Shown: positions 26,817-53,503 of the stretch, in pieces
Position numbering within the stretch: the stretch's first letter is position 1
How the letters are laid out: every line of letters starts with the position of its first letter
Program-made: the position numbers and the translations under genes
Source: a virus
Lineage: Duplodnaviria; Caudoviricetes
Strand: one strand, 5' to 3'
Virus record (IMG/VR): IMGVR_UViG_3300020061_000007
Span: 1 to 61,727 of that record
DNA: 61,727 nucleotides
The notes under the pieces: generated by a model
What the model was told of the DNA's origin: nothing
The model's database searches: none
What the model saw: only the letters and a program-made list of their open reading frames with translations

Positions 26817-26822
26817 ATAAAA

Positions 26823-37100: not shown

Positions 37101-37797
37101 AATGAACGTCGATGTCGAGGCGGCATTGGAACGCGGCGAGCTTTCGGAAAAGGATTTGCTCCGCGCCGGGCAGAACATCGTCAATCGCACGCAGTATAAG
37201 ACCGATGTCACCGAGATTCCGCTATTCTGGTCCAGCGATGCCGGGCGGCTCTTAACGCAGTTCAAGAAGTTTCAGTTCAAGGCCGGGCAAATGATGAAGG
37301 ACGAAGTTTTGGCCGAGATGAAGCGCGGCAATGCCAAGCCGTTTATCAGAGCCGCTTTGATTCTGCCGATCGCTGGTCTTTTGACGGTTACCTTAAAGGA
37401 CTCAGTGCGGTTTGGCGATCAGACGGAACGGGACCGAAACATTGCGGACTATCTTGCCGCGGTCGGCACCTTCGGAGCGTTCACCGACGCCTTTGCAGGC
37501 TCGGGACGCCAGCCGGTCAAGGGACTGCCGTATTTGGCTGGTCCTACGCTCGGCGATGCCGGTTCGTTATGGGAAGCGGCGTTTATCGAAGCTCCGAAGG
37601 GTAATCTTAGACCGGGAGCCAAGTTTGTTGCGCGTCAAGTCCCGGTAGTGGGTCCGTCGATTCGCCAGTTGTTCAATGAGCCGAAGGAACCGAAGTCGAG
37701 CGCGGAGAACAGCCAGCTTTTAAAGGAGCTTGGGATTGATTCGCCGCTGCAAAAAGAGGCGAACCGCAGAATGTTGAAAGATCTTGGGCTCCAATAG
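31165..37797 (+). CDS. Large polyvalent internal virion protein with adenine methyltransferase and ADP-ribosyltransferase-like domains
   Basis: 2210 aa; FFTP, VLEPSAGKG and NPPF (MTase); YHGS..FDKFD..KVGTGEGAQTYGHGLYF; helical C-terminal region. Confidence 0.85.
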   Translation: MPFVADTQEELPRRSSGFVPDPPAPKNWFDQLKSTASDVGQSVSDTAQTLRPVAEAVKNFLSAEPAREFSPSGEDVARVMGGVAKDPTVRAVAQSFPDAARLVPEVAHRIFKPAMPFMGGQPLPDVVRVPLEVAATELRKIDPRAANLLEAGLMTAGAMHGQVGAAVKQAANIPRYGRFAGEPEAARFANARDVTPEAPRALPAPGEPIAAGPPRPARAQPIAEIIKPKAAEPVKSGFVPDEAVKPGFTLEPVANAPTAKVNTFYDDAVKAYTSTTFDERFGNMHGTGATPKSAEASLNKNLTAAKEQGTWRSVEHPTPAPKAKPERPAPYGIQPRGFVPDEAPKGFTRFYRADVEGATKPGGTHWVKASDAERSGYFREGGEYGKANLYVDVPNSYPEIANTLDLNNYIPTRITIPKDSELARQVKPIAPPPETPAVTKPLEARIAKLEAEVERGNAELRGKPAAAPETPRAEVPVPERFQQTAPAEPLKTKPLRTIQGEIGDAVERNVEQVTQSEGNLEYKGKEYEGAVREGKKLRLKDSPDKVIGNPAEMLKVEEKVPFDIAPEIAPDAPQTVTSGPIGSKPPELMTPGEAAQGLHLSGSPVSARDAHRFTISKALDDGKPVNADAMVVYEDLRAKAEELGYKRSGDRYVLGEKASPSFEQTPAGQQAVIPGAEARSVPDAPLRAKRAQTEKPLELEQPGIAAKEPGLFEPKPIPSKNLAPEEIAAADEMRGELGTPKLSTQDSALSTEKPLDPVAERIAQLEKENAELRERKAQKEVSQKSAVASKAPALRRLADGMDAQIEAKMNPASANQNPTHRRAGIIDSMMRDGDRLKAIQTQLRAIADASEAGTLPDSLREVSSRADLETMSGKFYRPSVHNSNLNSILEVTKSKRGLTEDRAQVARANGRLTSPGSSATILYPNDLDAISRVAKAAQDAKPYDAKGVLEDVAKARRMAKLGIETEEKFNKAKADLEQLTGPKTQADPTARRIRELESQLIGTREAGRFFTPKAVAEQVVDAADIRPGMKVLEPSAGKGDLADAIKAAEPEADLSTIEIRSNLREILELKGHKSAGNDFLELKDGDYDRIVMNPPFENGAEMDHVRHAYELLKPGGKLVSIMSEGPFGRTDKKATEFREFLSEVGGESEKLPDKSFTGAGTITQTGVSTRLVTIEKPKDAPGAPNEVAALLSKESAKPQTPTEIETLLRSVYHGSPHTFDKFDISKVGTGEGAQTYGHGLYFAENPKVAETYAKKDPWKMAGPGPHLLKGETYSAKISDATVSKMLDWDKPLSEQPKVLEIVKSVAGPGGQPEKWTGEEAYHALENMVHKPGDGAGDRQRVSELLAQHGIPGIRYLDQGSRSADMGYRIIFPDGKPSNTRWKTKAEAETALGNAGKQGRDTKDAKIEFIDDDTRSTRNYVVFDPDILTEVKRNGGEVAALLSAEKPKAQPAQPLTDILEKPTDTTTTEYSRQLRKQADALSKESMKMMDRVPPGQPVSSTADRNLRERAADKMRKAGNLIKQAEKLEQDISEPTKGRNPIDILKSERGSIRFGPVRMRDGKPVEAPTVDEVKAAVDELTKPVSSKRLIAGGLFEESTKTLSKTMGAEGTELGKLSKAVRNDSELEASAAYQPIKAQLKKMDAKQRANLVEVLEGKSAPLDEKVKTLATTTRIALNKVADRAAQVGLEIKNPVTGEKYPFQPRENFFPHMFGKEMGQIARDPKGRAMLKEKIKASLERAGKEVDDVAVEKALQGAIKTSRTRYGHLEMARIADLGDYSKDAGAVLSRYFADAYRRVNIAEKFGPDLAKGEKLLSEIGLNKGDKAESFARSYFQKVTSTEPEGNLAVKDAVRFATNFQAATKLGQAVISNLSQPAYTAIVAGAKNAAKGYGAAMTKEGRTFADKIILSDTMTDFLKDTGEHIDRSKMGKAADTVLRRTGFTAVERMNRTVSANAGKFFAEDTFEKLLKKPDSARLRYHLEKMNVDVEAALERGELSEKDLLRAGQNIVNRTQYKTDVTEIPLFWSSDAGRLLTQFKKFQFKAGQMMKDEVLAEMKRGNAKPFIRAALILPIAGLLTVTLKDSVRFGDQTERDRNIADYLAAVGTFGAFTDAFAGSGRQPVKGLPYLAGPTLGDAGSLWEAAFIEAPKGNLRPGAKFVARQVPVVGPSIRQLFNEPKEPKSSAENSQLLKELGIDSPLQKEANRRMLKDLGLQ
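33387..33420 (+). repeat. Heptamer repeat (ACTCAG[C/G]) x~5, in frame
   Basis: ACTCAGC ACTCAGG ACTCAGC ACTCAGC ACTGAG. Confidence 0.9.
34719..35489 (+). repeat. 21-bp direct repeats (34719-34739 and 35469-35489) flanking the YHGS domain
   Basis: CGAAGTCGCGGCACTGCTGAG twice, 750 bp apart. Confidence 0.92.
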
Positions 37798-37879
37798 GGC
37801 GAAACAAGATAGAGTAAATTAACACCAAATAATTTGACGCGGTTTGGATTGATCATCTGGACCGTCGCCGAATCCAACG

Positions 37880-37925
37880 AAAAGGCTCTGCTCACTGTCG
37901 ACAGCAGGAGGGTAGGGCCTTTTTT
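37880..37925 (+). terminator. Intrinsic terminator-like hairpin
   Basis: AAAAGGCTCTGCTC / GGGTAGGGCCTTTT stem with T-run. Confidence 0.65.
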
Positions 37926-37951
37926 CGTTGGAGCACGAGGAGAAGCAAGCG

Positions 37952-38173
37952 ATGGCGACGGATTGGAAGTCAACGTGGCTTCATAAGGTCGATCAATTCG
38001 GGGGTCAAGAGCCCATGGGCTCGGGGCCGTTCGGCGCGACCGCATGGGACGACACGAACCTCGCTGCGCCCACGTGGAAATCAACCTGGCTCCACAAAGT
38101 GAACGAATTTGGCGGGCAAGAACCGATGGGAAGCGGGCCGTTCGGGGCCACGATTTGGACTGAGGAAATATGA
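37952..38173 (+). CDS. 73-aa two-repeat Trp/Gly-rich protein
   Basis: RBS GAGGAG; WKSTWLHKV..FGGQEPMGSGPFGAT.W twice with mostly synonymous differences; ATGA-coupled to the next gene. Confidence 0.8.
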   Translation: MATDWKSTWLHKVDQFGGQEPMGSGPFGATAWDDTNLAAPTWKSTWLHKVNEFGGQEPMGSGPFGATIWTEEI

Positions 38174-41100
38174 AATCACGAATTGTCGCTCTGCTTGTTT
38201 TGTTGCTCGCGTTCGCTGTGCCGCTCCATGCCGCCGATACCCAGACGCCGCTGTTGGGGCTCACCAAGCCGGACGCACCGGCGAATACATGGGGCTCAAA
38301 ACTCAACACCAATTTTGACATTTTAGACAAAGCCGTCGGCGTCTCGCTCGGCACCGGCACCACCGGCACCGGCGCACTCGTCTTCAACAACTCGCCGACC
38401 TTCGTCACCCAGATCACCTTGCCGAAAATCATCTGGAGCGGCGGGCCGATCGACTTGACCGGCTCCGGCTCGCCCGAAGGCGTCATCACCGCGGCGCGCG
38501 GATCTACTTACCGGCGCACCGACGGCGGCGCCACCACCAGTTTTTACGTTAAAGAATCGGGCGTCTCGAATACTGGTTGGGTCGCCTACGGCAATCCGGC
38601 CGGCACGGGTGCGCCCGCGGAAGCAACCTATATTACTCAGACTCCGCAAGGCGGACTCACCAGCGAGCAGGCGCTATCCTCGCTTGGAACCGGGCTGTTA
38701 AAAAACACCACCTCCACCGGTGTCTTGTCGATCGCCGTAGCGGGTACGGATTATTGGGGCACGGCCACGGCGATTCCGGTGACCGGCGGCGGCACCGGCG
38801 GCATCAACGCGCCGACCGCGCGCGCCAACCTGGGACTTACCATCGGCTCCGATATTCAGGCGCACAGCAACCAATTGGACGCGCTCGCCAGCACGGTTTC
38901 AAGCGCGGATCGCATCCCCTATTACACCGGCGTCGGTACGGCCACGGTCACGGATTTGACCGCGTTCGGGCGAAATCTCATCGGCACCGCCAACTCGACC
39001 ACGGCCGGGGCGCTTCTTGGCCTGGGCACGATGGCGGGTCAGTCGGCGTCGTCCTACCTGGCGCTTTCCGGCGGCACGCTTACCGGTCAATTGATCGCCA
39101 GCAATTTGGGCGTCTACTTTACCGCATCCGATACCAACCCGGCTTGTACGGCGGGGCTGTACGGTATTTACGCCGATCTCTCCGAAACCAAGCTCAAGCA
39201 GTGTCAAAACGGCGTAGCCAGCGACGTTGGTTCGGGCGGCGGCGGTGGGTCCGGCGACATCGAAGGCGTGACGGCGGGAACGGGCCTCACCGGCGGCGGT
39301 GCTTCAGGATCGGTCACTCTCGATGTGGCGGTCACGGCGCCGATCGAAATCATCACTGATACGGTGGGCTGTTCCGATTGCGCGCTGCTCTCCGGCCACC
39401 TCGGACAGTTCGCGGCGACCACCTCGGCACAGTTGGCGGCCAATCTCACCAACGAGACCGGGACGGGAGTCGCGGTCTTTGGCACCAGTCCAACGTTTAC
39501 CACGGGGATTACCACTCCGGCAGTCATCTGGACCGGCACCGTCCGGGACTTGAGCGGCGCGGGAGATCCGGAAAGCGTCGTCACGGCGCCCGTGGGCTCG
39601 GTCTATCGAAGGACCGACGGCGGGGCGACGAGCACGCTTTACGTTAAAGAAAGCGGCGCCGGCAACACCGGATGGGTGCCCTACGGCAATCCTTCGGGAA
39701 CCGGGGCGCCGACCGATGCAACCTATATTTTAGCCACCGCGAACGGCTCGCTTTCAGCGGAATTCGCGCTCGGCTCGCTCGCTACCGGCCTACTTAGAAA
39801 CACCACCACGACCGGCATTCCGACCATCGCGGTCGAAGGAACGCATTACTACGCGCCCGGGGGAACCGATGTCGCGTTAGGGGATGGCGGAACGGGCTCG
39901 AGCACGGCGGCCGGGGCACGCACCAATCTCGGGCTGGGCACCATGGCCACGCAGGCCTCCAGCTCGGTGACGATCACCGGCGGAAGCATTACGGGCATCA
40001 CTGACCTTTTAGTCGCCGACGGCGGCACCGGTCTATCCGCAGGCACCAGCGGCGGCATTCCTTATTTTTCCAGCACAACCACGATGGCATCGTCCGCGGC
40101 GCTCACGGCCAACCGGCTTTTGCTCGGCGGTGGCGCGGGCGTGGCTCCTACGGTTGTCGGGTCATTGGGCACAACGACCACGGTTCTCCATGGCAATGCG
40201 GCGGGAGCGCCCACATTCGGCGCCGTGTCATTGACCGCGGACGTTTCGGGAATTCTGCCCTTTGCCAGCGGCGGCACCGGGCTCGGATCGGGCACGAGCG
40301 GCGGGCTGCTCTACTTCAGCGGTACAACGACTTTGGCGTCCTCTGCAGCGCTCACCGTAAACGAACCGGTCATCGGCGGCGGTGCCGGTTCTCCCCCCTC
40401 GGTGGGAACCCGCTCCGGCAACACCACTCAGTTCGTTACCACGACCGGCGCGCAGACCTCGGGGAATTGCGTCGAGATCGACGGCTTGGGCAATCATATC
40501 GCGAGCTCGGGCGCATGCGCGGAGGGGCTCAATAACGTCACCGCGGCGTCCACCTTTGCGACCGACAACCGGCTACTCAGATCGGACGGCACCGGACGCG
40601 GCGCACAAGCTTCGAGCGCTTCTCTCACCGATGGCGGCGACTTGACCGTCACGTCTCTTTCAGTGGCCGGCGCGCCGACCAGCACTTGCGGCACCGCGGG
40701 CTGCTTTCAGTTGGGCGAAGGCACCGCGCCAAGCTCATTTCCGCCGACCTCCGTCACGGTCTATGTCCCGGCGAGCGTACCGACCTCTTACGGCGTCGTC
40801 ATGCCAAGCGCAGCGGCGACCGGCTTTGTCAAATGGACGAATAGCTCCAACACGGTCACCGAATCGATCGTCCCGGTGAGCGGGGCAGGCGCCAGCGTCC
40901 TGACATCGGACGGCACCATAAATATTGCCAGCGGCAAGACTTTAACCATCAGCAACACGATGACGCAGGTGGCAACCGACGGCAGCACCATTGCTTTCGG
41001 GACCGGTGGAACCGTCGCCTACACCGGAAATAATTTGAGCGTCTTTGCGGCCACGACCTCGGCGCAGCTCGCAACCGTTCTTAGCGACGAGACCGGCTCG

Positions 41101-43299
41101 GGCGGGGGATTTGTCAGAGCCACCGCGCCGGTCATCACGGGCGGAACTCTTACCGCTCTAACGACCTTTGCTCTGCGCGACACCTCGGCGCCGTTCGATG
41201 TGACCATCGCGGCGGTCAGCTCACCGGCGCTTACGGCAGGACGAATTCTAACCCTCGACATGGCCAACGCGGCGCGCTCGATCACGCTCGGCGGAAACCT
41301 GAGTCTTGCGGCGAACTTTTCCACGAGCGGGGCCAATGCCTTAACTCTGACCACCACGGGGACCACCAACGTCACCCTGCCGACTTCGGGAACCCTGGTA
41401 AGCACCTCGACCACTTCGCTGCCCTCGCTCGCTACGGTTGGCACGGTCACGGGCGGAACATGGGGAACCGGCGCGGTCATTGCCGGAGCAACCATGACGC
41501 TCGGCTCTGATGCCACCGGCGATACTTACTATCGAAACGCCGGCGGCGTGCTCACCCGGCTTGCGGCCGGCAGCAACGGCCAGGTCTTGACGCTCGCTTC
41601 CGGCTTGCCTTCGTGGGCGACCGCATCAGGCGGCGGCACGGTCACGGTGGTCAGCTCCGGCAGCTTGACCTCCACGGCGCTGGTCACCGGCGGCGGCACC
41701 ACGACCCTACAAACGCCATCGGCAACTTCGACTCTAAGCTCAGGCGGCGCCTTGAGTTTGGCGGGTGCGGCTTCGGCTTTAACCTCGCTGACCTTGCGCG
41801 GCTCGACTTCGGGAACAGCGGTCATCTCCGTATCGGCAACGGCGGGAACACCGAACACTATCGTACTACCGACCGCCACCGCAGGCGCGGGAACCTATCT
41901 CAAGAGCGACGGCGGCAGTCCGCAAATCCTCTCCTGGGACTCACCGGCAGGCGCGGGCACCGTGACCAACACGGGAGGCAACTTAACCGCGAACGCGGTC
42001 GTGCTCGGCGCCGGCACCGCGGACACCAAAGTCATCGCGGGTCTGACCTCCGACGGAACTTCGAAGATCGTGCTCGGCGTGGCCGGCGCCTCGGTCGGCG
42101 GGGTCGATTTTAAAAACGCTACCTCGGGAACCATTACGGTTTCTCCGACCACGGGCGCGCTCGGAACCATCGCAATCGTTCTACCGGCGGCGGCGGGAAC
42201 CGTCGCAGTAGCGTCGACCAGCGCCACGGCAACCCAAGCCCTGTTCGCCACGACCACCGCGGGGGCGCCGGCTTATCGCGCGATTGCCACCGGAGATCTT
42301 CCGACTGCGCTCGCCAACCAGACCTCAATCAACGGCTTGGCGATCACCGCATCGACCGGAACCCTGGCAGTTGCCAACAGCAAAACTCTAACGGCTAGCA
42401 ATACCCTGACCTTCACCGGCACCGATGCGTCTTCGATCGCCTTTGGCGCCGGCGGGACCGTTGTCTACACCGGCAGCACTTTGGCGGTGTTTTCCGCGAC
42501 CACTTCGGCGCAGCTCGCCAGCGTGCTCTCCGATGAATCAGGCAGCGCCGGCGGATTTGTCCGGGGCACCGGCGCAACTCTGACCGCTCTGGCAGGGCTC
42601 GGCATTCGGTCATCGGGCGGCGGCGCTTTCGATCTGACGATTGTCAACAGTGAAACTTTAAGCGCCGACCGCGCCCTCACCATTACGCTCAACAATGCGG
42701 CGCGGACGATCAACCTTGGCGGCAACTTGACCACGGCCGGGGCGCTCATCACTTCGGGCGCGAACTCTCTGACGCTCACCACGACCGGCACGACCAACGT
42801 CACTCTTCCAACGACCGGAACCCTCGTGGCTGGCCCTGTAGCCACCGCTGACATCGCCGCCAACGCGGTCACATCCGCCAAGCAGCCCGTGTCACTTACC
42901 CGGCGCGCTTGCACGATGGTGATCGGCGCGGATAACGGCGCGGTGCTGGTCAACGGCGATCTCGCTTTAAACCGCCAGTGTTTCATCCCCGCCACTGGCA
43001 CCGTGGTGGAGTTGATCGTCGCAGCCGACGACGGCACGCCCAACGTCGTTGTGCGAAGGAGCCGGGGCGGGTCGACCGCCAACTTGACCGCCTCCGCCTT
43101 TGCGACGGCGGCGGCCGGCGCGCTCGCCTGCGCCAACACGGCGGGATCGGGAACCGCCATCGATGCGGCGACGACTTGCGCAGTGGCGCTGACGAACACG
43201 GGCCTGGTCGCCGGCGACTGGATCGAGCTTGCCAGCGGGACCGCAGGCGGCACGGCAAAGAGAATGTCAATCGCAGTGGTCTACGTCACCACCGACTAA
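38170..43299 (+). CDS. Giant tail-fibre-like protein with signal peptide (1709 aa)
   Basis: MKSRIVALLVLLLAFAVPLHA-A; then LGLTKP...WGSKLNTNFDILD; GSPEG..TA..GS.YRRTDGG..YVKESG..NTGW x2; TSAQLA..L..ETG x3; GGTG repeats. Confidence 0.88.
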   Translation: MKSRIVALLVLLLAFAVPLHAADTQTPLLGLTKPDAPANTWGSKLNTNFDILDKAVGVSLGTGTTGTGALVFNNSPTFVTQITLPKIIWSGGPIDLTGSGSPEGVITAARGSTYRRTDGGATTSFYVKESGVSNTGWVAYGNPAGTGAPAEATYITQTPQGGLTSEQALSSLGTGLLKNTTSTGVLSIAVAGTDYWGTATAIPVTGGGTGGINAPTARANLGLTIGSDIQAHSNQLDALASTVSSADRIPYYTGVGTATVTDLTAFGRNLIGTANSTTAGALLGLGTMAGQSASSYLALSGGTLTGQLIASNLGVYFTASDTNPACTAGLYGIYADLSETKLKQCQNGVASDVGSGGGGGSGDIEGVTAGTGLTGGGASGSVTLDVAVTAPIEIITDTVGCSDCALLSGHLGQFAATTSAQLAANLTNETGTGVAVFGTSPTFTTGITTPAVIWTGTVRDLSGAGDPESVVTAPVGSVYRRTDGGATSTLYVKESGAGNTGWVPYGNPSGTGAPTDATYILATANGSLSAEFALGSLATGLLRNTTTTGIPTIAVEGTHYYAPGGTDVALGDGGTGSSTAAGARTNLGLGTMATQASSSVTITGGSITGITDLLVADGGTGLSAGTSGGIPYFSSTTTMASSAALTANRLLLGGGAGVAPTVVGSLGTTTTVLHGNAAGAPTFGAVSLTADVSGILPFASGGTGLGSGTSGGLLYFSGTTTLASSAALTVNEPVIGGGAGSPPSVGTRSGNTTQFVTTTGAQTSGNCVEIDGLGNHIASSGACAEGLNNVTAASTFATDNRLLRSDGTGRGAQASSASLTDGGDLTVTSLSVAGAPTSTCGTAGCFQLGEGTAPSSFPPTSVTVYVPASVPTSYGVVMPSAAATGFVKWTNSSNTVTESIVPVSGAGASVLTSDGTINIASGKTLTISNTMTQVATDGSTIAFGTGGTVAYTGNNLSVFAATTSAQLATVLSDETGSGGGFVRATAPVITGGTLTALTTFALRDTSAPFDVTIAAVSSPALTAGRILTLDMANAARSITLGGNLSLAANFSTSGANALTLTTTGTTNVTLPTSGTLVSTSTTSLPSLATVGTVTGGTWGTGAVIAGATMTLGSDATGDTYYRNAGGVLTRLAAGSNGQVLTLASGLPSWATASGGGTVTVVSSGSLTSTALVTGGGTTTLQTPSATSTLSSGGALSLAGAASALTSLTLRGSTSGTAVISVSATAGTPNTIVLPTATAGAGTYLKSDGGSPQILSWDSPAGAGTVTNTGGNLTANAVVLGAGTADTKVIAGLTSDGTSKIVLGVAGASVGGVDFKNATSGTITVSPTTGALGTIAIVLPAAAGTVAVASTSATATQALFATTTAGAPAYRAIATGDLPTALANQTSINGLAITASTGTLAVANSKTLTASNTLTFTGTDASSIAFGAGGTVVYTGSTLAVFSATTSAQLASVLSDESGSAGGFVRGTGATLTALAGLGIRSSGGGAFDLTIVNSETLSADRALTITLNNAARTINLGGNLTTAGALITSGANSLTLTTTGTTNVTLPTTGTLVAGPVATADIAANAVTSAKQPVSLTRRACTMVIGADNGAVLVNGDLALNRQCFIPATGTVVELIVAADDGTPNVVVRRSRGGSTANLTASAFATAAAGALACANTAGSGTAIDAATTCAVALTNTGLVAGDWIELASGTAGGTAKRMSIAVVYVTTD

Positions 43300-43308
43300 A
43301 GGAGAAAA

Positions 43309-43995
43309 ATGACAAGAGGCATCCGGATCTTACTTTTATACTTTTGTACTTTTGTGCCCTTTCACTTCTTGTCGCCTGCCTGGGGCGCGAGCATCCGCAC
43401 GCCGGTGCAGACCGACAACTTCGCCGACAATAACCTGGGTTCGGGAACGGTCACGTGGACCCAGATCAACAACTGTTGCTCGCACATTCAGAACACCAGC
43501 GGAACCGCCAGCAGTGCGCACAGCAGTGAGTCGGTGGTTCAGGCCGACGGCACTTACAGCGCGGATCAGTACGCGAAGTTCAAGATCATCACCCTGCCGA
43601 GTGTTTCCCAAGCCAACGGCGGAATCGGAGTAATCGTCCGCTCCTCCGGCCAACAAGACTCGGCCCGCGACTATTACAAATATTGGGTCGACGGCGCCGG
43701 CAATCCCCTGGCGACAAAGCTCACCAAAGTCATCAACGGCACTCCAACCGATCTCGATTCAACGACTTCTGTTTCGTGGAGCGTCAACGACACCATCGAG
43801 ATCGAAGTCGAAGGAACGACCATCCGAGGTTATCAAAACGGCACTTTGAGAACGACGATAACGGATGCGGCTCTGGCCACCGGCAAGGCCGGGCTCGTGA
43901 TCGGGAACAACGTCGGCGTGGGCGACGATTGGGAAGGCGGCGATGTAACGGCGGGCGCGACGACTCCCATCCGCCATAGGGTGACCAACCAATGA
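43309..43995 (+). CDS. Exported beta-sandwich (concanavalin-like) protein
   Basis: RBS AAGGAG; signal peptide ending AWG-A; beta-rich. Confidence 0.8.
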   Translation: MTRGIRILLLYFCTFVPFHFLSPAWGASIRTPVQTDNFADNNLGSGTVTWTQINNCCSHIQNTSGTASSAHSSESVVQADGTYSADQYAKFKIITLPSVSQANGGIGVIVRSSGQQDSARDYYKYWVDGAGNPLATKLTKVINGTPTDLDSTTSVSWSVNDTIEIEVEGTTIRGYQNGTLRTTITDAALATGKAGLVIGNNVGVGDDWEGGDVTAGATTPIRHRVTNQ

Positions 43996-46667
43996 AAAAA
44001 ATCTTATCGGCTCTTGTTCTACTCACCTTACTATTGCCGAGAGTGGTTTGGGCAACGACGCTTTCCACGCTCGCCGCTTCCTTGAGTCCCGGCCAGTTTG
44101 CCCAGATTCCCGAAGCTCAAATGAGCGGGTTTGGCAACGGTCTGATCATGACGCCGCAGGGCGCAGGCTGCGCCAATTTTCAAGACACCATCACTCAGTT
44201 CGCCAACAAAGCGGTTTGGAACACGATCTTAAATCAGTTCATGTTTGTCGGCTCGCCGCACGGCAGTTGCAACACCTGGCGCCTGGTCATCTACGACGAC
44301 GCCACCAACACCTGGTCCATCGGACCTTCACCGTCGGCAGGCAATCAGCCGCAACACTCCTACGATCACAACACGATCAACCCGGCCAACGGTACGATGT
44401 ACTGGCGGGATTTTAATTCGCTGAGTTTCCGCACGTTGCCCAACGGCGCTGGTTCGTGGTCGAGCATCGCGTCTTTCAGTTCATCCAATCAATGCTGCGG
44501 CGCGCTGGAATATTTTCCCGATCAAAACCGGCTCATCTTTATCGACGGCGACAACGGCGGGCGGTCGTACAATCCGGCGACCAACGCCTGGACGCAGTTG
44601 TGGTTCGGTTTCAACGGCGGCGGGTCGCCGATCTTGGACGTCGGTCATCACAGCAATTGGGCCGAATACAGCAACCTTGGCCTTCTGGTCTTTGGCGGTA
44701 GCGGCGGCAATTACAAAATGAACGCGGCCGGCACGATCACCACGATGTCGTCGCCGCCGTTTGGCAATTTCACGATCGGCAACGAAGGGTCGTGCTGTTC
44801 GGTCGCAGCCGACCCGGTGACCGGGCATCTCGTCGTTATCTCCGGATCGAATGTCTGGAACTTAAATCCGACAACGGGAACCTGGACTAGCACCGGCACC
44901 ACGGCACCGTCCTATTTCGGCAACGCCGCTCAAGATTTGATCTCCGCGCCGATCTCCGATTACGGCGTCATCATGTACGTCAAGTGCAACCGTTCGTCCT
45001 CCTGCCAGGCTTATCTTTACAAGCATGGGGCGGGCACGCCGGACACCACGCCACCGACCGCGCCGAGCGCTCTGGTTGTAACCCCGATTAGTTTTACTCG
45101 ACTCGATCTGTCCTGGACCGCTTCATCGGATGCGGTCGGAGTGAGCAGTTACTTAATCGAACGCAGTCCGGCCGGCTGCGGCGCGTTCGCACAGGTCGGC
45201 ACGTCGGCGACCAATTCGTTTAGCAACACCGGGCTGACAGCCTCGACGACTTATTGCTACCGAGTTCGCGCCTCGGATGCGGCGAATAATTTAAGCGGAT
45301 ATTCAACGCCCAACGTCTCAGCCACCACGACAGCAGCGGACACCACCGCGCCAACCGTGCCGGCTAACTTGACCGCCACGGCCATCAGTGCGAGCCAGGT
45401 CAACTTGTCTTGGTCGGCTTCTACCGATGCGGTGGGCGTCACGGCCTATTTGCTGGAGCGCTGCGCTGGTGCTGCGTGTGTGAATTTTTCTCAGATCATC
45501 TCTCAGACGGGCATCATTTACAGCGATACGACAGGGCTCTTGGCTTCCACGTTGTATCGCTATCGCGTGCGCGCCACGGACGCGGCGACCAATCTAAGCA
45601 GTTATTCCTCGATCGCTCAGGCCACCACGCCGGCGGGCAGCGGCTCTGATTTTACTGCACGCTGCGCTGCGGCGGGGGTGCTTCGCTGTTTTAGCTTCGA
45701 CACCGATACCGATTTCGCGTTCGGCAGCGGCGGCGCTGAAGGGGGGCGAGGGCTCAACTACGGATATCTCCCGCCAAGCTCGAACGGTGACTTCACGAAA
45801 ATCACCAGGGACACCGCAACAAAAACTTCCGGAGCATCATCTCTTAGGCTGAATATCCCTGGCAGCGGCGGCGCTGATGTAGCGGGAGCCTGGTTTGCCA
45901 ATTTCTCCGCCGATTTATCGCAGCAACTCCAACCTGGTCAGGACATCTGGATACAGGTCCGCTATCGGGTCGATTCTAATTTTCTCAATCAAAATTACGG
46001 CGGGCACGGGTTCAAGATAATGGACATCAGCGGCGGCGACCTGCCGGGATGCGCTCCTGGCCAAGGCTCTGCACTATGTCCGACTACCTGTTGGGCTGGC
46101 GAGAACGTCTTTACTACCGAGAAAACCTCCTCGGGTCACTTGATAATCGCCTACTCAAACTGCACTGGAAACAACGGCTTTAACACGGCCTATGGATTCA
46201 CGAGCAATTTTTCTCCGCAGAACGTCAACAATTGTTTGTATCCAAGTTACGTCGCGCCACCCTGCATTTACATGACCGCGAATGAATGGTGGACGATGAA
46301 AATCCACATTCGCGTCGGCACCTATAACTCATACTCATCGACGTACCAGGTCTGGGTTGGCAGGGAAGGGCAACCGACCAGCTTGATAATAGACTGCGGG
46401 CCAGCTCCTGGCCGTACTTGCCTCAATCGGCAGGGCACAGCGCAGCCTGGGGGATGGTGGATCGAGAAAGATACCGCCTCGCCGATTGTCGTGGGCAAGG
46501 TCTGGCTTCTTCCGTATCAAACGGACGCGACTTTTACCGGCCTTCAACCCGCGCAAATCTGGTACGACGACCTGATTATTTCCCGTTCAGATATCGCCGA
46601 TCCGGGCGGCTCAATCACCCCGCCCGTCGCTCTAGCCGCACCGAGCGTGTCGGTGACAACGCCATGA
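43992..46667 (+). CDS. Exported protein: beta-propeller + 2 FN3 + lectin/lyase-like domain
   Basis: MKKILSALVLLTLLLPRVVWA; Kelch-like Y....N.W repeats; DTT.PT.P...LSW.AS.D..GV..Y...Y.YRVRA FN3 repeats. Confidence 0.85.
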   Translation: MKKILSALVLLTLLLPRVVWATTLSTLAASLSPGQFAQIPEAQMSGFGNGLIMTPQGAGCANFQDTITQFANKAVWNTILNQFMFVGSPHGSCNTWRLVIYDDATNTWSIGPSPSAGNQPQHSYDHNTINPANGTMYWRDFNSLSFRTLPNGAGSWSSIASFSSSNQCCGALEYFPDQNRLIFIDGDNGGRSYNPATNAWTQLWFGFNGGGSPILDVGHHSNWAEYSNLGLLVFGGSGGNYKMNAAGTITTMSSPPFGNFTIGNEGSCCSVAADPVTGHLVVISGSNVWNLNPTTGTWTSTGTTAPSYFGNAAQDLISAPISDYGVIMYVKCNRSSSCQAYLYKHGAGTPDTTPPTAPSALVVTPISFTRLDLSWTASSDAVGVSSYLIERSPAGCGAFAQVGTSATNSFSNTGLTASTTYCYRVRASDAANNLSGYSTPNVSATTTAADTTAPTVPANLTATAISASQVNLSWSASTDAVGVTAYLLERCAGAACVNFSQIISQTGIIYSDTTGLLASTLYRYRVRATDAATNLSSYSSIAQATTPAGSGSDFTARCAAAGVLRCFSFDTDTDFAFGSGGAEGGRGLNYGYLPPSSNGDFTKITRDTATKTSGASSLRLNIPGSGGADVAGAWFANFSADLSQQLQPGQDIWIQVRYRVDSNFLNQNYGGHGFKIMDISGGDLPGCAPGQGSALCPTTCWAGENVFTTEKTSSGHLIIAYSNCTGNNGFNTAYGFTSNFSPQNVNNCLYPSYVAPPCIYMTANEWWTMKIHIRVGTYNSYSSTYQVWVGREGQPTSLIIDCGPAPGRTCLNRQGTAQPGGWWIEKDTASPIVVGKVWLLPYQTDATFTGLQPAQIWYDDLIISRSDIADPGGSITPPVALAAPSVSVTTP

Positions 46668-49600
46668 CCAAAACCCGTGGCTCGTGGCTCGTGGCTCGTG
46701 GCTTCATCGTCAGGCTCCTTCTCGCTCTATTGCCTATTGCCTATTGCCTATTGCCTTCTCCCGCCTGGGGCGCGGCGAACACCATTGCGCAGGCTCCGGC
46801 CGTGGCGACGGCCACCGGCACGACGATCAATAAAGTTTTTGCCGGCGCCACGGTGGTCGGCAGCCGGTTGATTGCGGTCCTTACGGTAGAGGGCGTGGTG
46901 ACATCGCTCACCGTGGCCGACAACGGCAACGCCGGGAATTACACTCAGGACGTGACCGGCAATAGCGGCGGCGGCTCGGTCGGCGCGCGGGCGAGTTACA
47001 TTTTTTCCAAGGTCAACACGGTTACTTCGGCGGTTACGATTACGGCCACCTGGACCGGGGCGTCGGCCGCGCAAATCCAGATCTACGAGCTGAGAAATAT
47101 TGGCGGTACGCCGATTATAGATGTCACCGCCAATGGCGGCGGCACCAGCGGCGCGCCCGTTGTGAATCCCAGCGTGTCGATCACCACCACCACGGCCAGC
47201 GACACGATCATCGTCGGGGCGACGAGTTACCCCCCACCGGCCACGCCGGACACCGGGTTTGTCTTTCGCGGCGGTCCTACTGCGCTCACCAATGCCGTCC
47301 ATACGGTTGAGGATCGCGTCGATGCCGCAGCCGCAGGGGCAACCACGTTGACCCTTAGCGGCCTGGTTCTCGGCGGCGGCAATTCGTACAGCATGGCTGT
47401 GGCGGCGTACAAACCGCCCGCCGTGGCGGACGTGACCCCGCCAACCGTGCCGGGCAGCTTGTCCGTGACTCCGTTCAGCACCACGCAAAATAATCTGAGC
47501 TGGACCGCTTCGACCGATGATGTTGCCATCGCCTGGTACAGCCTGGAGCATTGCACGGGCGCCGGTTGCGTGAACTTCGTTGAGTTCAATACGTCGGGCA
47601 CAACAGCGGGTTCCGATACCGGGCTGCAGCCATCCACCCTTTATCGGTATCGAATCCGCGCTTTCGACGGCACCAACTATTCCGCCTATTCAACCATCGT
47701 CGAAGCGACCACGCTGACACCGGATGCCACGGCGCCGACCGTGCCGACCAATGTGCTCGCAACCGTCGTCAGCACGACGCAGATCAATCTTGCCTGGACC
47801 GCTTCGACGGACAACATCGCGGTCACCAATTACCGGGTCGAGCGTTGTACCGGGGCGGCTTGCGTAAACTTTTCCGAGGTCGGTGCGCCGACCGCAATCA
47901 CGTTTCCCAATACCGCACTGACGGCCGGGACGGTTTACCGCTTCCGGGTGCGCGCCTTCGATGGCGTCAACTTCTCCGCATATTCAACCATCATTCAGGC
48001 GACCACGCTCTTAGCGCGCCAGGCAACTATCAGGTGGACCGATACGGTCAACACGGATCACACCGGGTACACCGTGCAGCGAAAAACCGGCGTCGGCGGC
48101 ACGTTCGCCGATCTCGGCAGCGTCGGGCCAAGCCTGCGCCAACTTATCGATCCGGACTCGCCATCACCGATCGCATGCTATCGCGTGCGCGCGGTGCGCG
48201 CGGGAGAAGACGGGCCACAATCGGGAGAGGCCTGCACGACGACCTCGACACCGACGCCGCCGATCAATTTAGTGCTCGGTGGCAAAATCGCTTTCGGCGG
48301 CGCCAACACTACACGGATCGAGTCGCGCGACAATACCGCGCCGTCAGTTCCTACCAATCTGGTCGCCAACGTCGTCAGCTCGACCGAGATCGATCTTGCC
48401 TGGACAGCGAGCACGGACAACCTTGCGGTGATCAATTACCGGGTCGAGCGCTGCGCCGGCAACACCTGCATCAATTTCGTGGAGATCGCCACGCCGAGCG
48501 GACTGACGCTGGCCGATACCGGGCTGCAATCGAACACGTTTTATAACTATCGCGTGCGCGCATGGGACGGGACGTTGTTTTCCACGTACTCGGCGATCGC
48601 GCCGGCCAGGACCGATACCCAGGCGGCGACCACTTTGGTCAAAAAGAGCGGTGCGGACACCGTTCCCAACTGCACCAACTCCACGGGCGTCCTCACCGTA
48701 CTCTACGCTTTGGAGAACTGCGTCGGCGGCGGCGTAGGAACCGGGGCGGCCAAGGTCGTCGAGGTCGAATCCGGCACTTATGATGCGAGAATTGATGAAG
48801 CGACCGGGTTTACTTATCCCAGCGGCACGAGCAACAGCCGGTTCATCCTAAGAGCGAAGGCGGGTCATGCTGTAGTTCTGAAAGCCACCGGGCACGACAA
48901 CATTATTCGGGTCTGCGGCCGGCGGAGTTACTTCGCAGACATCGGGCCTGGGTTCACCTTCGACGGCACGGGGCACACGGGCAACGGCCAATCGATGATT
49001 TCCCCCGGGTGCGCCGACGATAGTCCAAGCGACATCAAAATCGTCGGCAACAACATCATCAACGGCGGGGTTAATACGGGCGTGGCCGCCGGGCAGTGGA
49101 GTTCACGTATCGATGTCATCGGCAACACCTTTTCAGGCTGGACCGTGGCGTTGGGATGTTTCGCCGGCAATCCGCCCAACTGCGGCTATCCGATGTATTT
49201 CACAGCTTCGGACAGCGAGATCAGCGGCAACACGTTCACGGACTTTGCCGCTTACGGAATCCACATTTATTTGGAATCGATCCACCCAGGCGGCGGCGGT
49301 GCATTCCCGTCACGCAATTTGGTTAAAAACAACGTGTTCAGCGGTCCATGGGGATCGCTCCAGGGCGCGGCGGCGATACTGATTGCGCGCGGCGACTCGA
49401 ACGTGGTCGCAAACAACACGATCCGGGACGGCTACCGCGGCAACTGCGCGGGCGCGGCGACCGGCGGTGTCGTCGTCGATTTCGGCGCGACCAATACCAA
49501 GGCCCTGAACAACTCGGTTTTCAATAGCTGCACCGGCATGTCGTCCTACAATGCCCAGAACAGCACATTTAGTAACAACGCTCTGTACGGGAACAACTTG

Positions 49601-50536
49601 GACTTCGAAGTTGATCCGGTGGGCCGCGACAGCGGACGAATCACCTCTAACAATGGTTGCTCGCAACTGCTGACCGGCTGCAACGCGCTACTGAACGAGG
49701 CATCCGCGGCGGTGTGGACCGACGCGCCGGGCGGCGTGCTTACGCTTAAATCCACGGCTAAAGCGACGACCATTGGCGGCGGCATTGAGTTGTCCGCGCT
49801 TTCCCCATCGATCACCACGGATATCGTGTCCACCTCGCGCAGCGCTCCCTATTCCGTCGGTGCGTACCAGTTCAGCAGCGGCACCTGCCCGGCCACGCCG
49901 ATCCAAATGATCAAGCTGGGCTTTGACGAGGGGACCGGGACCACCGCGGCAGACAGCAGCGGCAACGGCAACAATGTCGTTTCGATCGGCTCGGGAAATA
50001 GTTGGAACGCGACCGGCAAATATGGCAAGGCGCTCACGTTTGGCGGAACGGCGGCGGCGACGGTTGCCGACTCAATATCGCTCTTCCCGTGTACGGCCTG
50101 GACCTACATGGCTTGGGTCAAACCGACGAACACGCCGACCGACTTCGCCGGCATCATCAACAAGGGCGTCAAGCAAAGAATGTACTCGGCTTCGCACCCC
50201 TTCTACGTGATGAACTCCGGGCAATTGGCCGGCTGGAGCCAGGGCGCGGACGTGTTTGCAACTTGGCCGGTGGCGTTCACGGCAGGAACTTATGTCCACT
50301 ACACCGTCACCTACAACAGCGCGCTACCGAGCGCCAACGTAAAAATCAGGATCAACGGCGCCATCGTCGCATCGGCCGACGGCACGACGATACTCGGCAG
50401 CACCACGGACCCGCTGCTGATCGGCGGAAGTTTATTCGGCGAATATTTTGTCGGTGACATTGACGAAGTGAAGGGCTGGAATTCCGAACTCACCGGCGCG
50501 CAAATCATTACCGAGATGAACACGCCGATTAATTGA
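46664..50536 (+). CDS. Exported adhesin-like protein: 4 FN3, beta-helix, LamG-like domain (1290 aa)
   Basis: ATGA-coupled start at 46664; signal peptide ending AWG-A; FN3 repeats; FDEGTGTTAADSSGNGN...WVKP...FVGDIDEV LamG motif. Confidence 0.87.
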   Translation: MTKTRGSWLVARGFIVRLLLALLPIAYCLLPSPAWGAANTIAQAPAVATATGTTINKVFAGATVVGSRLIAVLTVEGVVTSLTVADNGNAGNYTQDVTGNSGGGSVGARASYIFSKVNTVTSAVTITATWTGASAAQIQIYELRNIGGTPIIDVTANGGGTSGAPVVNPSVSITTTTASDTIIVGATSYPPPATPDTGFVFRGGPTALTNAVHTVEDRVDAAAAGATTLTLSGLVLGGGNSYSMAVAAYKPPAVADVTPPTVPGSLSVTPFSTTQNNLSWTASTDDVAIAWYSLEHCTGAGCVNFVEFNTSGTTAGSDTGLQPSTLYRYRIRAFDGTNYSAYSTIVEATTLTPDATAPTVPTNVLATVVSTTQINLAWTASTDNIAVTNYRVERCTGAACVNFSEVGAPTAITFPNTALTAGTVYRFRVRAFDGVNFSAYSTIIQATTLLARQATIRWTDTVNTDHTGYTVQRKTGVGGTFADLGSVGPSLRQLIDPDSPSPIACYRVRAVRAGEDGPQSGEACTTTSTPTPPINLVLGGKIAFGGANTTRIESRDNTAPSVPTNLVANVVSSTEIDLAWTASTDNLAVINYRVERCAGNTCINFVEIATPSGLTLADTGLQSNTFYNYRVRAWDGTLFSTYSAIAPARTDTQAATTLVKKSGADTVPNCTNSTGVLTVLYALENCVGGGVGTGAAKVVEVESGTYDARIDEATGFTYPSGTSNSRFILRAKAGHAVVLKATGHDNIIRVCGRRSYFADIGPGFTFDGTGHTGNGQSMISPGCADDSPSDIKIVGNNIINGGVNTGVAAGQWSSRIDVIGNTFSGWTVALGCFAGNPPNCGYPMYFTASDSEISGNTFTDFAAYGIHIYLESIHPGGGGAFPSRNLVKNNVFSGPWGSLQGAAAILIARGDSNVVANNTIRDGYRGNCAGAATGGVVVDFGATNTKALNNSVFNSCTGMSSYNAQNSTFSNNALYGNNLDFEVDPVGRDSGRITSNNGCSQLLTGCNALLNEASAAVWTDAPGGVLTLKSTAKATTIGGGIELSALSPSITTDIVSTSRSAPYSVGAYQFSSGTCPATPIQMIKLGFDEGTGTTAADSSGNGNNVVSIGSGNSWNATGKYGKALTFGGTAAATVADSISLFPCTAWTYMAWVKPTNTPTDFAGIINKGVKQRMYSASHPFYVMNSGQLAGWSQGADVFATWPVAFTAGTYVHYTVTYNSALPSANVKIRINGAIVASADGTTILGSTTDPLLIGGSLFGEYFVGDIDEVKGWNSELTGAQIITEMNTPIN
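46676..46754 (+). repeat. Two perfect heptamer arrays: (CGTGGCT)4 at 46676-46703 and (CTATTGC)4 at 46727-46754
   Basis: Read directly from sequence. Confidence 0.95.
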
Positions 50537-50539
50537 GGA

Positions 50540-50570
50540 AGGCACTAGGCATTAGGCACCAGGCAATAGG
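50540..50570 (+). repeat. Degenerate heptamer array (AGGCA[C/T/A][T/C]) x4
   Basis: AGGCACT AGGCATT AGGCACC AGGCAAT AGG; reverse-complement family of (CTATTGC)n. Confidence 0.8.
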
Positions 50571-50586
50571 AAGATTAAGGAGATTC

Positions 50587-50982
50587 ATGAAAGTATTATC
50601 GATCATCGTTTTAACACTTCTGCTCGCAGGGGCAGCGCATGCAGTGGACCGTCAAGCGAGCTGGACGGATACATCCAATAACGAAACGGGTTTTATCTTT
50701 CAGAAGTGCTCCGGCGTTTGCACCGCGGCAAGCACCGGATGGGCACAGATCGGCGCAACGCTGCCGGTCAATACAACCTCGTTCCTGATTACCGGGATGC
50801 TCCCCGGCTCTACGACCAGCTACCGGGTTGGCGCCACCAACGCAGGCGGGACGGGATGGAGCTTGATTGTCGTGGATGTTTTGCCGCCTATTCCACCGAC
50901 ATCACCGGGTACGTTTACACTTCCGCCGTGTAAAGTTTTGACCGAGACCGCGCCGGGTAGCGGACTTTATCAGTGCTCGTAA
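50587..50982 (+). CDS. Exported single-FN3 protein
   Basis: RBS AAGGAG; MKVLSIIVLTLLLAGAAHA; WTDTSNNETGF...YRVGATNAGG. Confidence 0.85.
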   Translation: MKVLSIIVLTLLLAGAAHAVDRQASWTDTSNNETGFIFQKCSGVCTAASTGWAQIGATLPVNTTSFLITGMLPGSTTSYRVGATNAGGTGWSLIVVDVLPPIPPTSPGTFTLPPCKVLTETAPGSGLYQCS

Positions 50983-50988
50983 GAAACT

Positions 50989-51246
50989 ATGTTTAACGCC
51001 TTGGTAAAAAGGGCTACCCGCAACGTATCGAATCTTGTGATTGCCCGAGTCTCGATTTCCCTTCGGAATCTCTTGGCAATTCACAGCTTTGTCCGTCTGG
51101 CCGCAGCGTTTTACCAAGCGGATCCTAACCCCTGGGCCTTTTCGACATCGACGTGTTTCTTCCTGGTCGGCTTGGGGATGAGTGGCATTGCCAGGGCCGT
51201 TCAGCGGCTCGAAAATAGATACCAGGAGACTAAAAAATTGGAATGA
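50989..51246 (+). CDS. Membrane protein
   Basis: Hydrophobic segment; ATGA-coupled to the next gene. Confidence 0.5.
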   Translation: MFNALVKRATRNVSNLVIARVSISLRNLLAIHSFVRLAAAFYQADPNPWAFSTSTCFFLVGLGMSGIARAVQRLENRYQETKKLE

Positions 51247-51725
51247 CAGAACAAGGCGTACTCGCTCTCGTTGGTCTGATCGTGACCCTACTGACGGGCG
51301 CCAATGGTTTATTTACGTACCTCTCCAACCGTAAACTAACCAAACAGAACGAAGATCTAGCGAAGCAGAATACCGAGCTCGATAAGCGCGCCAGTGCTGA
51401 CGCGAAAGTGATTCAAAAGCAAAACGCCGAGCAGACCAAGGCGATCACCAAGGTGCAAGAGGCGCAGGAACAGTCCCACGACATGCAGAACAGCCGGTTG
51501 GACGAATGGAAGAAAGAGCACATGCTGCGGGAAAAAGAGGCCATCGAGGCGGCGGTGCTCAGGGGATTGGCGCAGGGCATGGAACTTGAACGGGCGCGCA
51601 GCGAGAAGGCCGCGGCCGAGACCTTAGCGGAGGCCAAGAGGATCGCCGACGACGTGATCGCCACGGCCAAACTGGCGGCGGACAAACTGGTGGCAGTCGC
51701 CGCATCCTTGGGGAAAAGGAAATAA
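51243..51725 (+). CDS. Membrane-anchored coiled-coil protein (possible lysis protein)
   Basis: N-terminal TM plus long coiled coil; RBS AGGAG. Confidence 0.7.
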   Translation: MTEQGVLALVGLIVTLLTGANGLFTYLSNRKLTKQNEDLAKQNTELDKRASADAKVIQKQNAEQTKAITKVQEAQEQSHDMQNSRLDEWKKEHMLREKEAIEAAVLRGLAQGMELERARSEKAAAETLAEAKRIADDVIATAKLAADKLVAVAASLGKRK

Positions 51726-51728
51726 AAA

Positions 51729-51998
51729 ATGAAAAGCGAATGGACAGTTTTACTCGTATCGGCTTTCACCGACTTGCTTCTCGCCGTTGGCGCGACTCTG
51801 ACCGCGGCGATGATGGGCGCGGAAGTTGTTGCCGTGCCGAGCACGGGCGTTATGATTCTCGCCGCGATCTCCGGGATAACGGCGGCGGCGCGCACGGTCC
51901 AGCAAGCGTTGAAAATGACGCCGTCGGCAGCGGCCAATCTGCGCGGCTCGCCGTCGATGACTGTGACCGCCGACGTTTCACCGACCACTAAACCGTAA
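51729..51998 (+). CDS. Putative holin
   Basis: 89 aa with two hydrophobic helices; late-region position. Confidence 0.55.
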   Translation: MKSEWTVLLVSAFTDLLLAVGATLTAAMMGAEVVAVPSTGVMILAAISGITAAARTVQQALKMTPSAAANLRGSPSMTVTADVSPTTKP

Positions 51999-52007
51999 AG
52001 GAGAGAC

Positions 52008-53049: not shown

Positions 53050-53235
53050 ATGGGCCACTTAACCGAACTTCAGGACCGCGCACGCGCCAAGGTGGACAAT
53101 TTGCCGCGGAGCGAACAACTGATCATTCTTAAATACGTGAGAACGATCACCGGCATGGAAGGGCGCTGCGAGGATTTGGACCACGAGATCAACAAAGCCA
53201 TGAAAGTGGAAAAAGCCAATGAAGGAAAGTCTTAG
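53050..53235 (+). CDS. Hypothetical protein
   Basis: RBS GAGG. Confidence 0.55.
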   Translation: MGHLTELQDRARAKVDNLPRSEQLIILKYVRTITGMEGRCEDLDHEINKAMKVEKANEGKS

Positions 53236-53503
53236 AGCGATTGCGCTTTCCGCGATGATTTTTTTTCTCTTGAGCATTTCAGGCTGCGCACCTGGAGGTT
53301 TACTTTTGACCGACTCTTCCAACATGACACCCGAACAAATGGAGGCGTACCAGAAGCTCGGCTATGACGCGATTCGCTGCGCCACGGTGCAAGGTCCGCC
53401 GGGCGGCGGGACTGTTACGTCGGTCACGATTCCAAAAAACAGAAAAGCTCTAGTTAAGTTTGTAGGCTGTTTGCCGCAGAGCGTGGAAGTCGGCGGCGAT
53501 TGA
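53219..53503 (+). CDS. Lipoprotein
   Basis: Signal peptide with lipobox ISGC. Confidence 0.75.
   Translation: MKESLRAIALSAMIFFLLSISGCAPGGLLLTDSSNMTPEQMEAYQKLGYDAIRCATVQGPPGGGTVTSVTIPKNRKALVKFVGCLPQSVEVGGD

Follow-up and report, generated by a model that had tools for sequence, protein, structure and literature searches.

A cassette of five leader-bearing proteins, headed by a tail-fibre-like protein, in a temperate tailed phage: possible export to the periplasm and release at lysis

In the textbook view, tailed phages assemble entirely in the cytoplasm. Free phage depolymerases and tailspikes show beta-helix and lyase-like modules, act on host polysaccharide and are in some cases soluble at lysis; those known to us fold in the cytoplasm and have no leader, and in this they differ from the five-gene cassette described here, which lies between positions 38170 and 50982 of the IMG/VR virus record IMGVR_UViG_3300020061_000007 (61,727 bases, the window) and whose first gene encodes a leader-bearing, tail-fibre-like protein of 1709 amino acids (aa), P1. 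Leaderless podophage fibres with the N-terminal motif M-ADT-x-TP-x-LGLTKP...W-x-x-KLN-x-NFD-x-LD share with P1 this motif at the same mature distance, a repeat-module shaft and a jelly-roll head, but they start directly with the motif, are Cys-poor and sit inside podophage tail modules (for example in loci L001 and L053), whereas P1 begins with a leader of 21 residues, contains six Cys pairs and is encoded just before the lysis genes. The mosaic adhesive trimer (MAT) fibres of Bdellovibrio bacteriovorus share with P1, in the available part of their description, a signal peptide, a trimeric shaft resembling that of phage fibres and exchangeable tips at the C-terminus, and, as proposed for P1, they act outside the cytoplasm; they are encoded by chromosomal genes of the predator and all show a beta-rich domain, conserved and ~130 aa long, directly after the signal peptide and, in 13 of 21, an S74 chaperone-protease (PMC10769870). 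In P1 the phage fibre motif occupies the position of that anchor domain, no Pfam match to Peptidase_S74 was obtained in any of the five cassette proteins, and a sequence search of P1 against PDB gave nothing at E<=1; because of the missing S74 match and the phage motif at the anchor-domain position, P1 is not filed with the MATs as these are presented there. XepA of PBSX is, in the available text of its source, a late protein that is exported across the cytoplasmic membrane, is not found in particles and has its gene beside those for holin and lysin (PMC6834076). It provides a precedent for an exported late non-virion protein, but it is small and pentameric, belongs to a Gram-positive defective prophage, is not fibre-like and is not part of a multi-gene cassette. 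The same text names the Sec- or signal-anchor-release (SAR)-exported endolysins of fOg44 and of phage P1 (PMC6834076), and leader-bearing proteins encoded in tail-fibre regions, such as lambda Lom, are mentioned in the accessible part of another article (PMC12309495); like the cassette proteins these use the host Sec pathway, but as presented there they are lysis enzymes or outer-membrane proteins and not homologs of virion fibres. No description of signal peptides on tailed-phage tail fibres was found among the literature titles and abstract openings searched, and in the available part of an article on phiCbK (PMC3556154) the term "signal peptide" is present only in the reference list.

The cassette contains 12,813 of the 61,727 bases of the window (20.8%), and its five genes are joined by ATGA overlaps or short gaps. 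The features of the cassette are the following:

38170-43299, + strand: P1, tail-fibre-like, 1709 aa; leader at residues 1-21 (38170-38232), fibre motif at 22-55, repeat-module shaft, 12 Cys forming six neighbouring pairs
42832-43296, + strand: residues 1555-1709 of P1, its distal head (tip); a jelly-roll in which two Cys pairs are conserved
43309-43995, + strand: P2, 228 aa; leader at residues 1-26, vicinal Cys56-Cys57
43992-46667, + strand: P3, 891 aa; leader at residues 1-21, weak Kelch-like N-terminal part, two FN3 domains, C-terminal jelly-roll (549-891), 22 paired Cys
46664-50536, + strand: P4, 1290 aa from the ATG that overlaps the previous stop; leader at residues 1-36, FN3 repeats, right-handed beta-helix at ~848-990, C-terminal Laminin_G_3 at 1127-1281
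50587-50982, + strand: P5, 131 aa; leader at residues 1-19, a single FN3-like domain, 4 Cys

Our preferred reading, held tentatively, is that these genes form a late-operon cassette whose products are exported to the periplasm, folded there with disulfides and freed at lysis, to act on host surface polysaccharide as a free fibre, lectins and lyase-like enzymes; as part of it, the proteins may have been derived from phage adsorption hardware.

All five leaders show a K/R-bearing n-region, a Leu-rich hydrophobic core of 10-15 residues and a small-x-small site, with predicted cuts after LHA, AWG, VWA, AWG and AHA and before AD, AS, TT, AA and VD in P1 to P5, respectively. They were called with a Kyte-Doolittle and -3/-1 heuristic of our own, not with a trained signal-peptide predictor; it flags the five cassette proteins and also eight other open reading frames (ORFs) of the window that are 100 aa or longer, namely a small protein at 11830, a PEP-CTERM protein, an exosortase (a membrane protein) and five overlapping or internal-start ORFs. 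By eye, the leaders of P1-P5 show neither a twin-arginine motif nor a lipobox, and there is no alternative start codon behind the leader of P1 that would keep the conserved motif. Judged from these features, the five proteins appear to carry typical Sec/signal-peptidase-I leaders. The mature proteins have 12, 2, 22, 20 and 4 Cys, always an even number and in neighbouring pairs, CAGAAC, CTGAGC and CSGVC among them. Pfam and NCBIfam give no match to a PEP-CTERM, barrel or anchor family in P1-P5, and the single later hydrophobic stretch of P1 (residues 1330-1348) contains Pro, Gly and Thr and is part of a repeat module. A preliminary description, made by reading this DNA alone, had already given the five genes with these lengths and positions, their basic-hydrophobic-AxA leaders, the fibre motifs and Cys pairs, the lack of anchor, PEP-CTERM tail and barrel, an unsignalled tailspike at 26823 and a share of about a fifth of the genome, and all of this agrees with what we find.

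P1 contains the motif LGLTKP..WGSKLNTNFDILD and, twice, GSPEG..NTGW. It matches a PHROG of virion structural proteins (E 1e-18) and nothing in Pfam; by tblastn, many cultured phages have tail fibre and spike proteins that match two of its short modules, and another module matches virion structural proteins of cyanophages. The fibre motif starts at residue 22 and thus not at the translated N-terminus, where leaderless fibres have it, a placement that implies assembly in the cytoplasm. A HMMER scan of 1.84 billion representatives with residues 22-70 of P1 gave 81 non-self matches at E<=0.001: in 57 the motif begins at residue 2-3, without a leader, in 18 it follows a hydrophobic leader, beginning at residues 19-26 in 17 of these and at residue 51 in the other, and the remaining six comprise four internal repeat matches, one start at residue 8 and one non-hydrophobic extension. 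In every leader-bearing relative the predicted cut immediately precedes the D/AD-T-x-T which in leaderless fibres comes after the initiator Met, so that processing would recreate the canonical fibre N-terminus. The Cys content is 0.92% in leader-bearing and 0.34% in leaderless relatives (2.7 times; Mann-Whitney p 0.0012), and paired Cys are likewise found in the mature leader-bearing fibres of two related phages, 10 in G002 and 24 in G005. A scan of genome contigs with the N-terminal alignment found five loci, and the two inspected (L052 and L053) encode leaderless fibres. Among the homologs of P1, 14 of 66 non-self matches were examined; ten show a leader and four do not. The nearest homolog, P0006, is 72% identical overall, with only four of 21 leader positions matching and a leader that is still hydrophobic and cleavable-looking, while its last ~150 residues are unrelated to the tip of P1. 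Such an exchange of tips is typical of receptor-binding proteins.

The model of the tip is a confident jelly-roll (predicted local distance difference test, pLDDT, 84.8), with 72 matches at E<=0.001 in BFVD to the heads of collagen-repeat, Mtd-N and tail-fibre proteins from phages. Foldseek against PDB gave no match at E<=0.001, the weak rows being phage cement proteins, C1q/TNF heads and the tail fibre of phage 7-7-1, and in the Protein Atlas the tip falls only in unnamed viral clusters (0.90-0.92). The tip is common to P1 and the fibres of G002 and G005, at 28-40% identity. In a search of 5.8 billion proteins, 10 of 11 tip homologs show a leader. The preliminary description had asked whether homologs start downstream of the hydrophobic leaders: this is true of the 57 leaderless motif relatives and of the P2 homolog of the related phage G001, and false for the closest fibre homolog and for these 10 tip relatives. 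A metagenome scan with the tip gave 32 loci, and the 12 longest were inspected. The tip ORF was flagged as leader-bearing in 11 of them, that is, in all 11 that can be assessed, since the twelfth is cut by the contig end. Five loci show phage neighbours: a major head protein in L059, an integrase in L067, an endolysin in L068, a terminase in L083 and a transglycosylase-like protein in L088. Others lie in contigs of 257-381 kb, and in three non-phage loci the neighbours belong to polysaccharide synthesis: a Polysacc_synt_3 flippase in L063, GT2 and DegT proteins in L065 and a GT4 protein in L075. No phage genes were found within 10 kb of these chromosomal tip genes. In the same three loci (L063, 6614-15535; L065, 9200-14443; L075, 7173-12614) the leader-bearing tip protein is followed by more large leader-bearing proteins, and in L063 the gene after the tip protein encodes a LamG protein. 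L063 indicates that the arrangement of fibre, lectin and giant protein exists also without a phage, and the three loci look like a cellular counterpart of the cassette within polysaccharide loci; the presence of the family, with leaders, in non-phage contigs implies that it functions without a virion.

Related phages were collected by scanning IMG/VR with a portal alignment, which gave 22 loci; a profile search of genome contigs with the same alignment found no relative. Nine records were fetched; six of them extend over the region that follows the internal or giant proteins, and G004, G006 and G008 end before it. Leader-bearing genes are located at the cassette site in five of the six. G001 (portal 80% identical) shows three, including a homolog of P5, and neither P1 nor p73 (the 73-aa protein encoded just before P1) was found in it. 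G002 (portal 49%, complete) shows five consecutive leader-bearing genes spanning 9.8 kb, the first encoding a fibre of 897 aa; G003 has a truncated P1-like fibre and then three leader-bearing genes; G005 has a leader-bearing fibre of 1251 aa; and G007 (portal 31%) has one leader-bearing protein. A 469-aa leader-bearing protein of G007, encoded behind its giant protein, had seemed by eye to carry the fibre motif, which BLASTP does not support. In G009 no leader-bearing gene was found at the site. The site proteins of the relatives show beta-helix, LamG, Big and weak GH39 matches, and in G002 and G005 the cassette begins 0-17 bases behind the structural genes. The GC content at third codon positions (GC3) is 0.61-0.75 in the five cassette genes and 0.63-0.75 in the other phage genes. 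The higher overall GC of the block had been considered as a sign of foreign origin and this was ruled out, because the excess lies in GC2, in Ala/Gly/Thr-rich proteins, and not in GC3. With leader-bearing genes at the same site in relatives and a GC3 equal to that of the phage, the block is not a recent insertion, as the preliminary description had allowed, but a clade-level trait. In the G009 record (L092; portal ~30%), positions 9123-9572 on the - strand encode a 149-aa lipoprotein with a thioredoxin-type WCSPC motif, which would be a phage-borne exported redox protein.

Among the other cassette proteins, FN3 is present in P3 and P4 (E 2e-13 and 5e-23), and P4 also shows Beta_helix (E 1e-9) and Laminin_G_3 (E 4e-18), so that the FN3, beta-helix and LamG domains of the preliminary description stand, while its propeller corresponds only to a Kelch match of P3 below the Pfam cut-off (E 0.001, 19 bits vs 20.1). 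Sequence searches of P3 and P4 against PDB returned FN3 matches only. The C-terminal domain of P3 (549-891) is modelled as a jelly-roll (pLDDT 81.7) whose best PDB match is the alginate lyase Aly36B (E 2e-9; template modelling, TM, scores 0.44/0.58), followed by PL14, glucuronan lyase, heparinase I and ulvan lyases (families such as PL36, PL14, PL20 and PL13). Over these lyases E ranges from 2e-9 to 3e-7, TM by query length from 0.39 to 0.44 and identity from 8 to 14%, and the modelled domain may be said to resemble polysaccharide lyases in fold only. The homologs of P3 are mostly leader-bearing multidomain proteins, some of them named chitodextrinase by JGI. P2 and P5 match nothing in Pfam, and P2 has no family match in PHROGs or NCBIfam either; from its sequence P2 is putatively lectin-like. 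Its homolog in G001 is 27% identical and has no leader, whereas the P5 homolog of G001 (119 aa, 35-39% identity) keeps its leader. A P2-like domain (32% identity over 114 residues) is also encoded at 5155-5478 in G003 and at 20749-21072 (- strand) in G005; in both, the gene lies in ~6-7 kb between the scaffold and major-head genes, two genes that lie side by side in the window.

The window is a whole virus record, classed linear and with a CheckV completeness estimate of 100%, and represents a temperate tailed phage, as shown by its integrase gene. Outside the cassette it contains:

13711-15159, + strand: large terminase
18515-20431, + strand: portal
21746-22759, + strand: major head protein
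25902-28655, + strand: virion module with a leaderless short fibre (304 aa, 25902-26816) and a tailspike (610 aa, 26823-28655)
31165-37797, + strand: polyvalent protein of 2210 aa (methyltransferase, ART-PolyVal, DUF3560), the last gene before the cassette
37873-37932, + strand: hairpin with T-run between the polyvalent-protein gene and p73; -36.5 kcal/mol, z -4.2, 0 of 200 shuffles as stable
37952-38173, + strand: p73, 73 aa, leaderless, with a ~30-residue unit repeated twice in tandem; stop codon overlapping the ATG of P1 (ATGA)
50989-52673, + strand: lysis-like genes, directly downstream of the cassette, encoding small membrane proteins and an Rz-like coiled-coil protein

The tailspike matches a PHROG of tail spikes (E 1e-13) and a pectate-lyase-like Pfam family and has no leader; three smaller proteins are encoded between it and the polyvalent-protein gene. 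The 304-aa fibre shares its conserved N-terminal ~125 residues with G001, G004 and G005; its counterpart in G002 is 241 aa long. The polyvalent protein has zero Cys, in sharp contrast to the Cys-paired proteins encoded directly after it. The lysis-like genes, in which the Rz-like spanin match is weak (E 3e-4), follow the cassette in identical order in G002. Homologs of p73 (40-42% identity) are located directly before the leader-bearing fibres of G002 and G005, with the ATGA overlap in all three genomes and, in G005, the order polyvalent protein, p73 and fibre without gaps; p73 gave no match in G007-G011 and no family match in Pfam, PHROGs or NCBIfam, and the Protein Atlas offered nothing usable (model pLDDT 0.37). 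A complex prediction with three copies of P1 residues 22-150 and p73 scored 0.00, which is no evidence either way. The hairpin looks like an intrinsic terminator or attenuator, although a consensus scan did not list it; it is present in the window only, G002 and G005 having no such gap, and no promoter-like site was found at the start of the cassette. The stretch is present in three soil metagenome DNA runs from two studies, one of them possibly the source sample, with contigs that span the polyvalent-protein/p73/P1 junction; there is no RNA run among the sequencing runs found to contain it.

An HNH nuclease and the integrase are encoded on the - strand, and between them lies a pair of genes for an exosortase (171 aa) and a PEP-CTERM protein (54443-55617, - strand), a position which makes it likely that the pair is surface cargo of the lysogenic state. 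Of the 254 positions of the Exosortase_EpsH profile, the exosortase covers only 106-253 (E 6e-36), and it stays below all NCBIfam subtype cut-offs; the 220-aa protein encoded just upstream, with a 4-base overlap, shows a leader, a PEP-CTERM tail (E 1e-8) and a weak partial match to the flocculation protein PepA. Exosortase systems mark diderm hosts that make exopolysaccharide, and the phage-borne exosortase and PEP-CTERM protein, together with the weak Rz-like match, point to such a host. Positions 11830-12177 encode a leader-bearing protein of 115 aa outside the block, without a match in NCBIfam, and the product of 53219-53503 (94 aa), likewise without an NCBIfam match, shows a lipobox-like LSISGC and could be a lipoprotein of o-spanin type. 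The packaging genes are closely preceded, upstream, by a gene for tRNA-Thr (CGT) at 12995-13068, and 5734-7410 encode a 558-aa protein in which an HNH-endonuclease-like part (residues 206-345) is fused to a DNA methyltransferase (364-549).

In the reading preferred here, an exported cassette that is freed at lysis, the five proteins would cross the inner membrane during lytic growth and signal peptidase I would remove their leaders, which would leave P1 with an N-terminus equal to that of leaderless fibres. Folding would take place in the oxidising periplasm with local disulfides, and in a diderm host the proteins would be held in the periplasm until the downstream lysis genes open the envelope. 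After release they would act freely on the polysaccharide of the host surface or matrix: P1 as a long fibre, trimeric and with a binding head that can be swapped, P2 and the LamG modules as lectins, and, as far as models and folds go, P3 with its lyase-like jelly-roll and P4 with its beta-helix as candidate depolymerases. The likely benefit would be that exopolysaccharide is loosened so that the progeny leave the soil aggregate, that receptors on debris or neighbours are masked or destroyed, or both. Late expression is suggested by the fusion of the cassette to the structural operon and then to lysis-like genes in the window, G002 and G005. Free agents are ranked first because the content resembles that of secreted carbohydrate-active proteins, because the family works without virions in chromosomes and because the virion has a leaderless fibre and spike of its own; G001, which has other leader-bearing genes at the site without P1 or p73, also counts for free action. 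Several points weigh against it. A fibre of 1709 aa attached to nothing has no obvious use, and P1, with its canonical fibre N-terminus, is found in the position of a T7-like tail fibre, a gene that in T7-like phages comes after the internal proteins and before the holin. Moreover, p73 is conserved, translationally coupled to P1 and leaderless, which is more in keeping with a partner in the cytoplasm or on the virion side than with a free exoprotein, and the maintenance of ~10-13 kb across a diverged clade (portals 47-80% identical) suggests an essential role such as adsorption.

Another possible but rather less probable explanation is an adsorption apparatus that matures in the periplasm, in which P1, and perhaps P2-P5, would be virion parts exported for their disulfides and docked, after holin lesions or in the lysate, onto particles built in the cytoplasm. 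Holin lesions of sufficient size, joining cytoplasm and periplasm ahead of envelope rupture, would make such docking possible. The processed N-terminus would bind the short leaderless fibre or adaptor or p73, which we consider unlikely though plausible; the leader-fibre phages of this clade and others would then build part of their recognition apparatus in the periplasm, in an assembly that spans two compartments and is completed by lysis, a proposal we hold doubtful, and p73, with similarly modest likelihood, would be the virion-side or pre-export partner. The location of P1 between the internal or polyvalent proteins and the lysis genes agrees with docking, as do the order of p73 and leader-bearing fibre with its ATGA overlap kept in the window, G002 and G005, a cut that restores the N-terminus of bona fide virion fibres (those of the L001 and L053 podophage tail modules), tips swapped between homologs as close as P1 and P0006, the fold match of the tip to phage fibre heads, and the complete G002 genome, which has a single leaderless fibre candidate, of 241 aa, vs 9.8 kb of leader-bearing genes. 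However, no precedent for a tailed-phage virion protein that first crosses a membrane was found in the titles and abstract openings searched, the virion already has its leaderless fibre and spike, the tip family is also present in chromosomal polysaccharide loci free of phage genes within 10 kb, G001 lacks P1 and p73, and the distant relative G009 lacks a leader-bearing gene at the site.

An improbable explanation is lysogenic-conversion cargo, with the fibre and lectins expressed by the lysogen as surface or matrix adhesins beside the exosortase/PEP-CTERM pair. The phage is temperate and does carry that pair as other surface cargo, in the window the cassette and the structural genes are set apart by a terminator-like hairpin, the chromosomal relatives lie in polysaccharide loci, and the MATs of Bdellovibrio, in the available part of their description, are leader-bearing phage-like fibres that serve as cell-surface adhesins (PMC10769870). 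Nevertheless, the cassette shows no promoter-like site at its start, follows the structural genes by 0-17 bases in G002 and G005, has the GC3 of other phage genes and shares its strand with the late and lysis genes, the lysogeny cargo being encoded on the other strand, close to the integrase; Pfam and NCBIfam gave neither an outer-membrane anchor nor a secretion tag. Very improbable is the idea that the leaders are not export signals, but uncleaved inner-membrane tethers until lysis or chance hydrophobic N-termini, even if the P2 homolog of G001 and 57 of 81 motif relatives function without a leader. Five leaders in a row, each with a small-x-small site, are present both in the window and in G002, leader properties are kept while the sequence diverges, Cys are enriched specifically in leader-bearing relatives, and leaders occur in 10 of 11 tip homologs and in all 11 assessable metagenome loci; the cores are also Leu-rich, unlike SAR domains. 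This comparative evidence makes non-functional leaders unlikely. The preliminary description had proposed export with oxidative folding, either for a second adsorption apparatus or for a prophage-encoded adhesin. Conserved leaders, the cut site, paired Cys and Cys enrichment support export and oxidative folding indirectly, and the adhesin version is weakened by the gap-free fusion of the cassette to the late structural operon in relatives.

On sequence grounds, exported fibre proteins would form a large family, with no description among the titles and abstract openings searched, and with leaders in about a fifth of the clusters that share the N-terminus and in nearly all tip relatives, and their tips are candidate binding modules stable outside the cell. 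If the fibre joins the virion, it would represent a new assembly route. If the cassette proteins are free, phages would deliver to the soil matrix fibres, lectins and lyases that are hardened by disulfides, which would bear on host range, on the turnover of biofilms and aggregates and on the prediction of receptors from "tail fibre" annotations.

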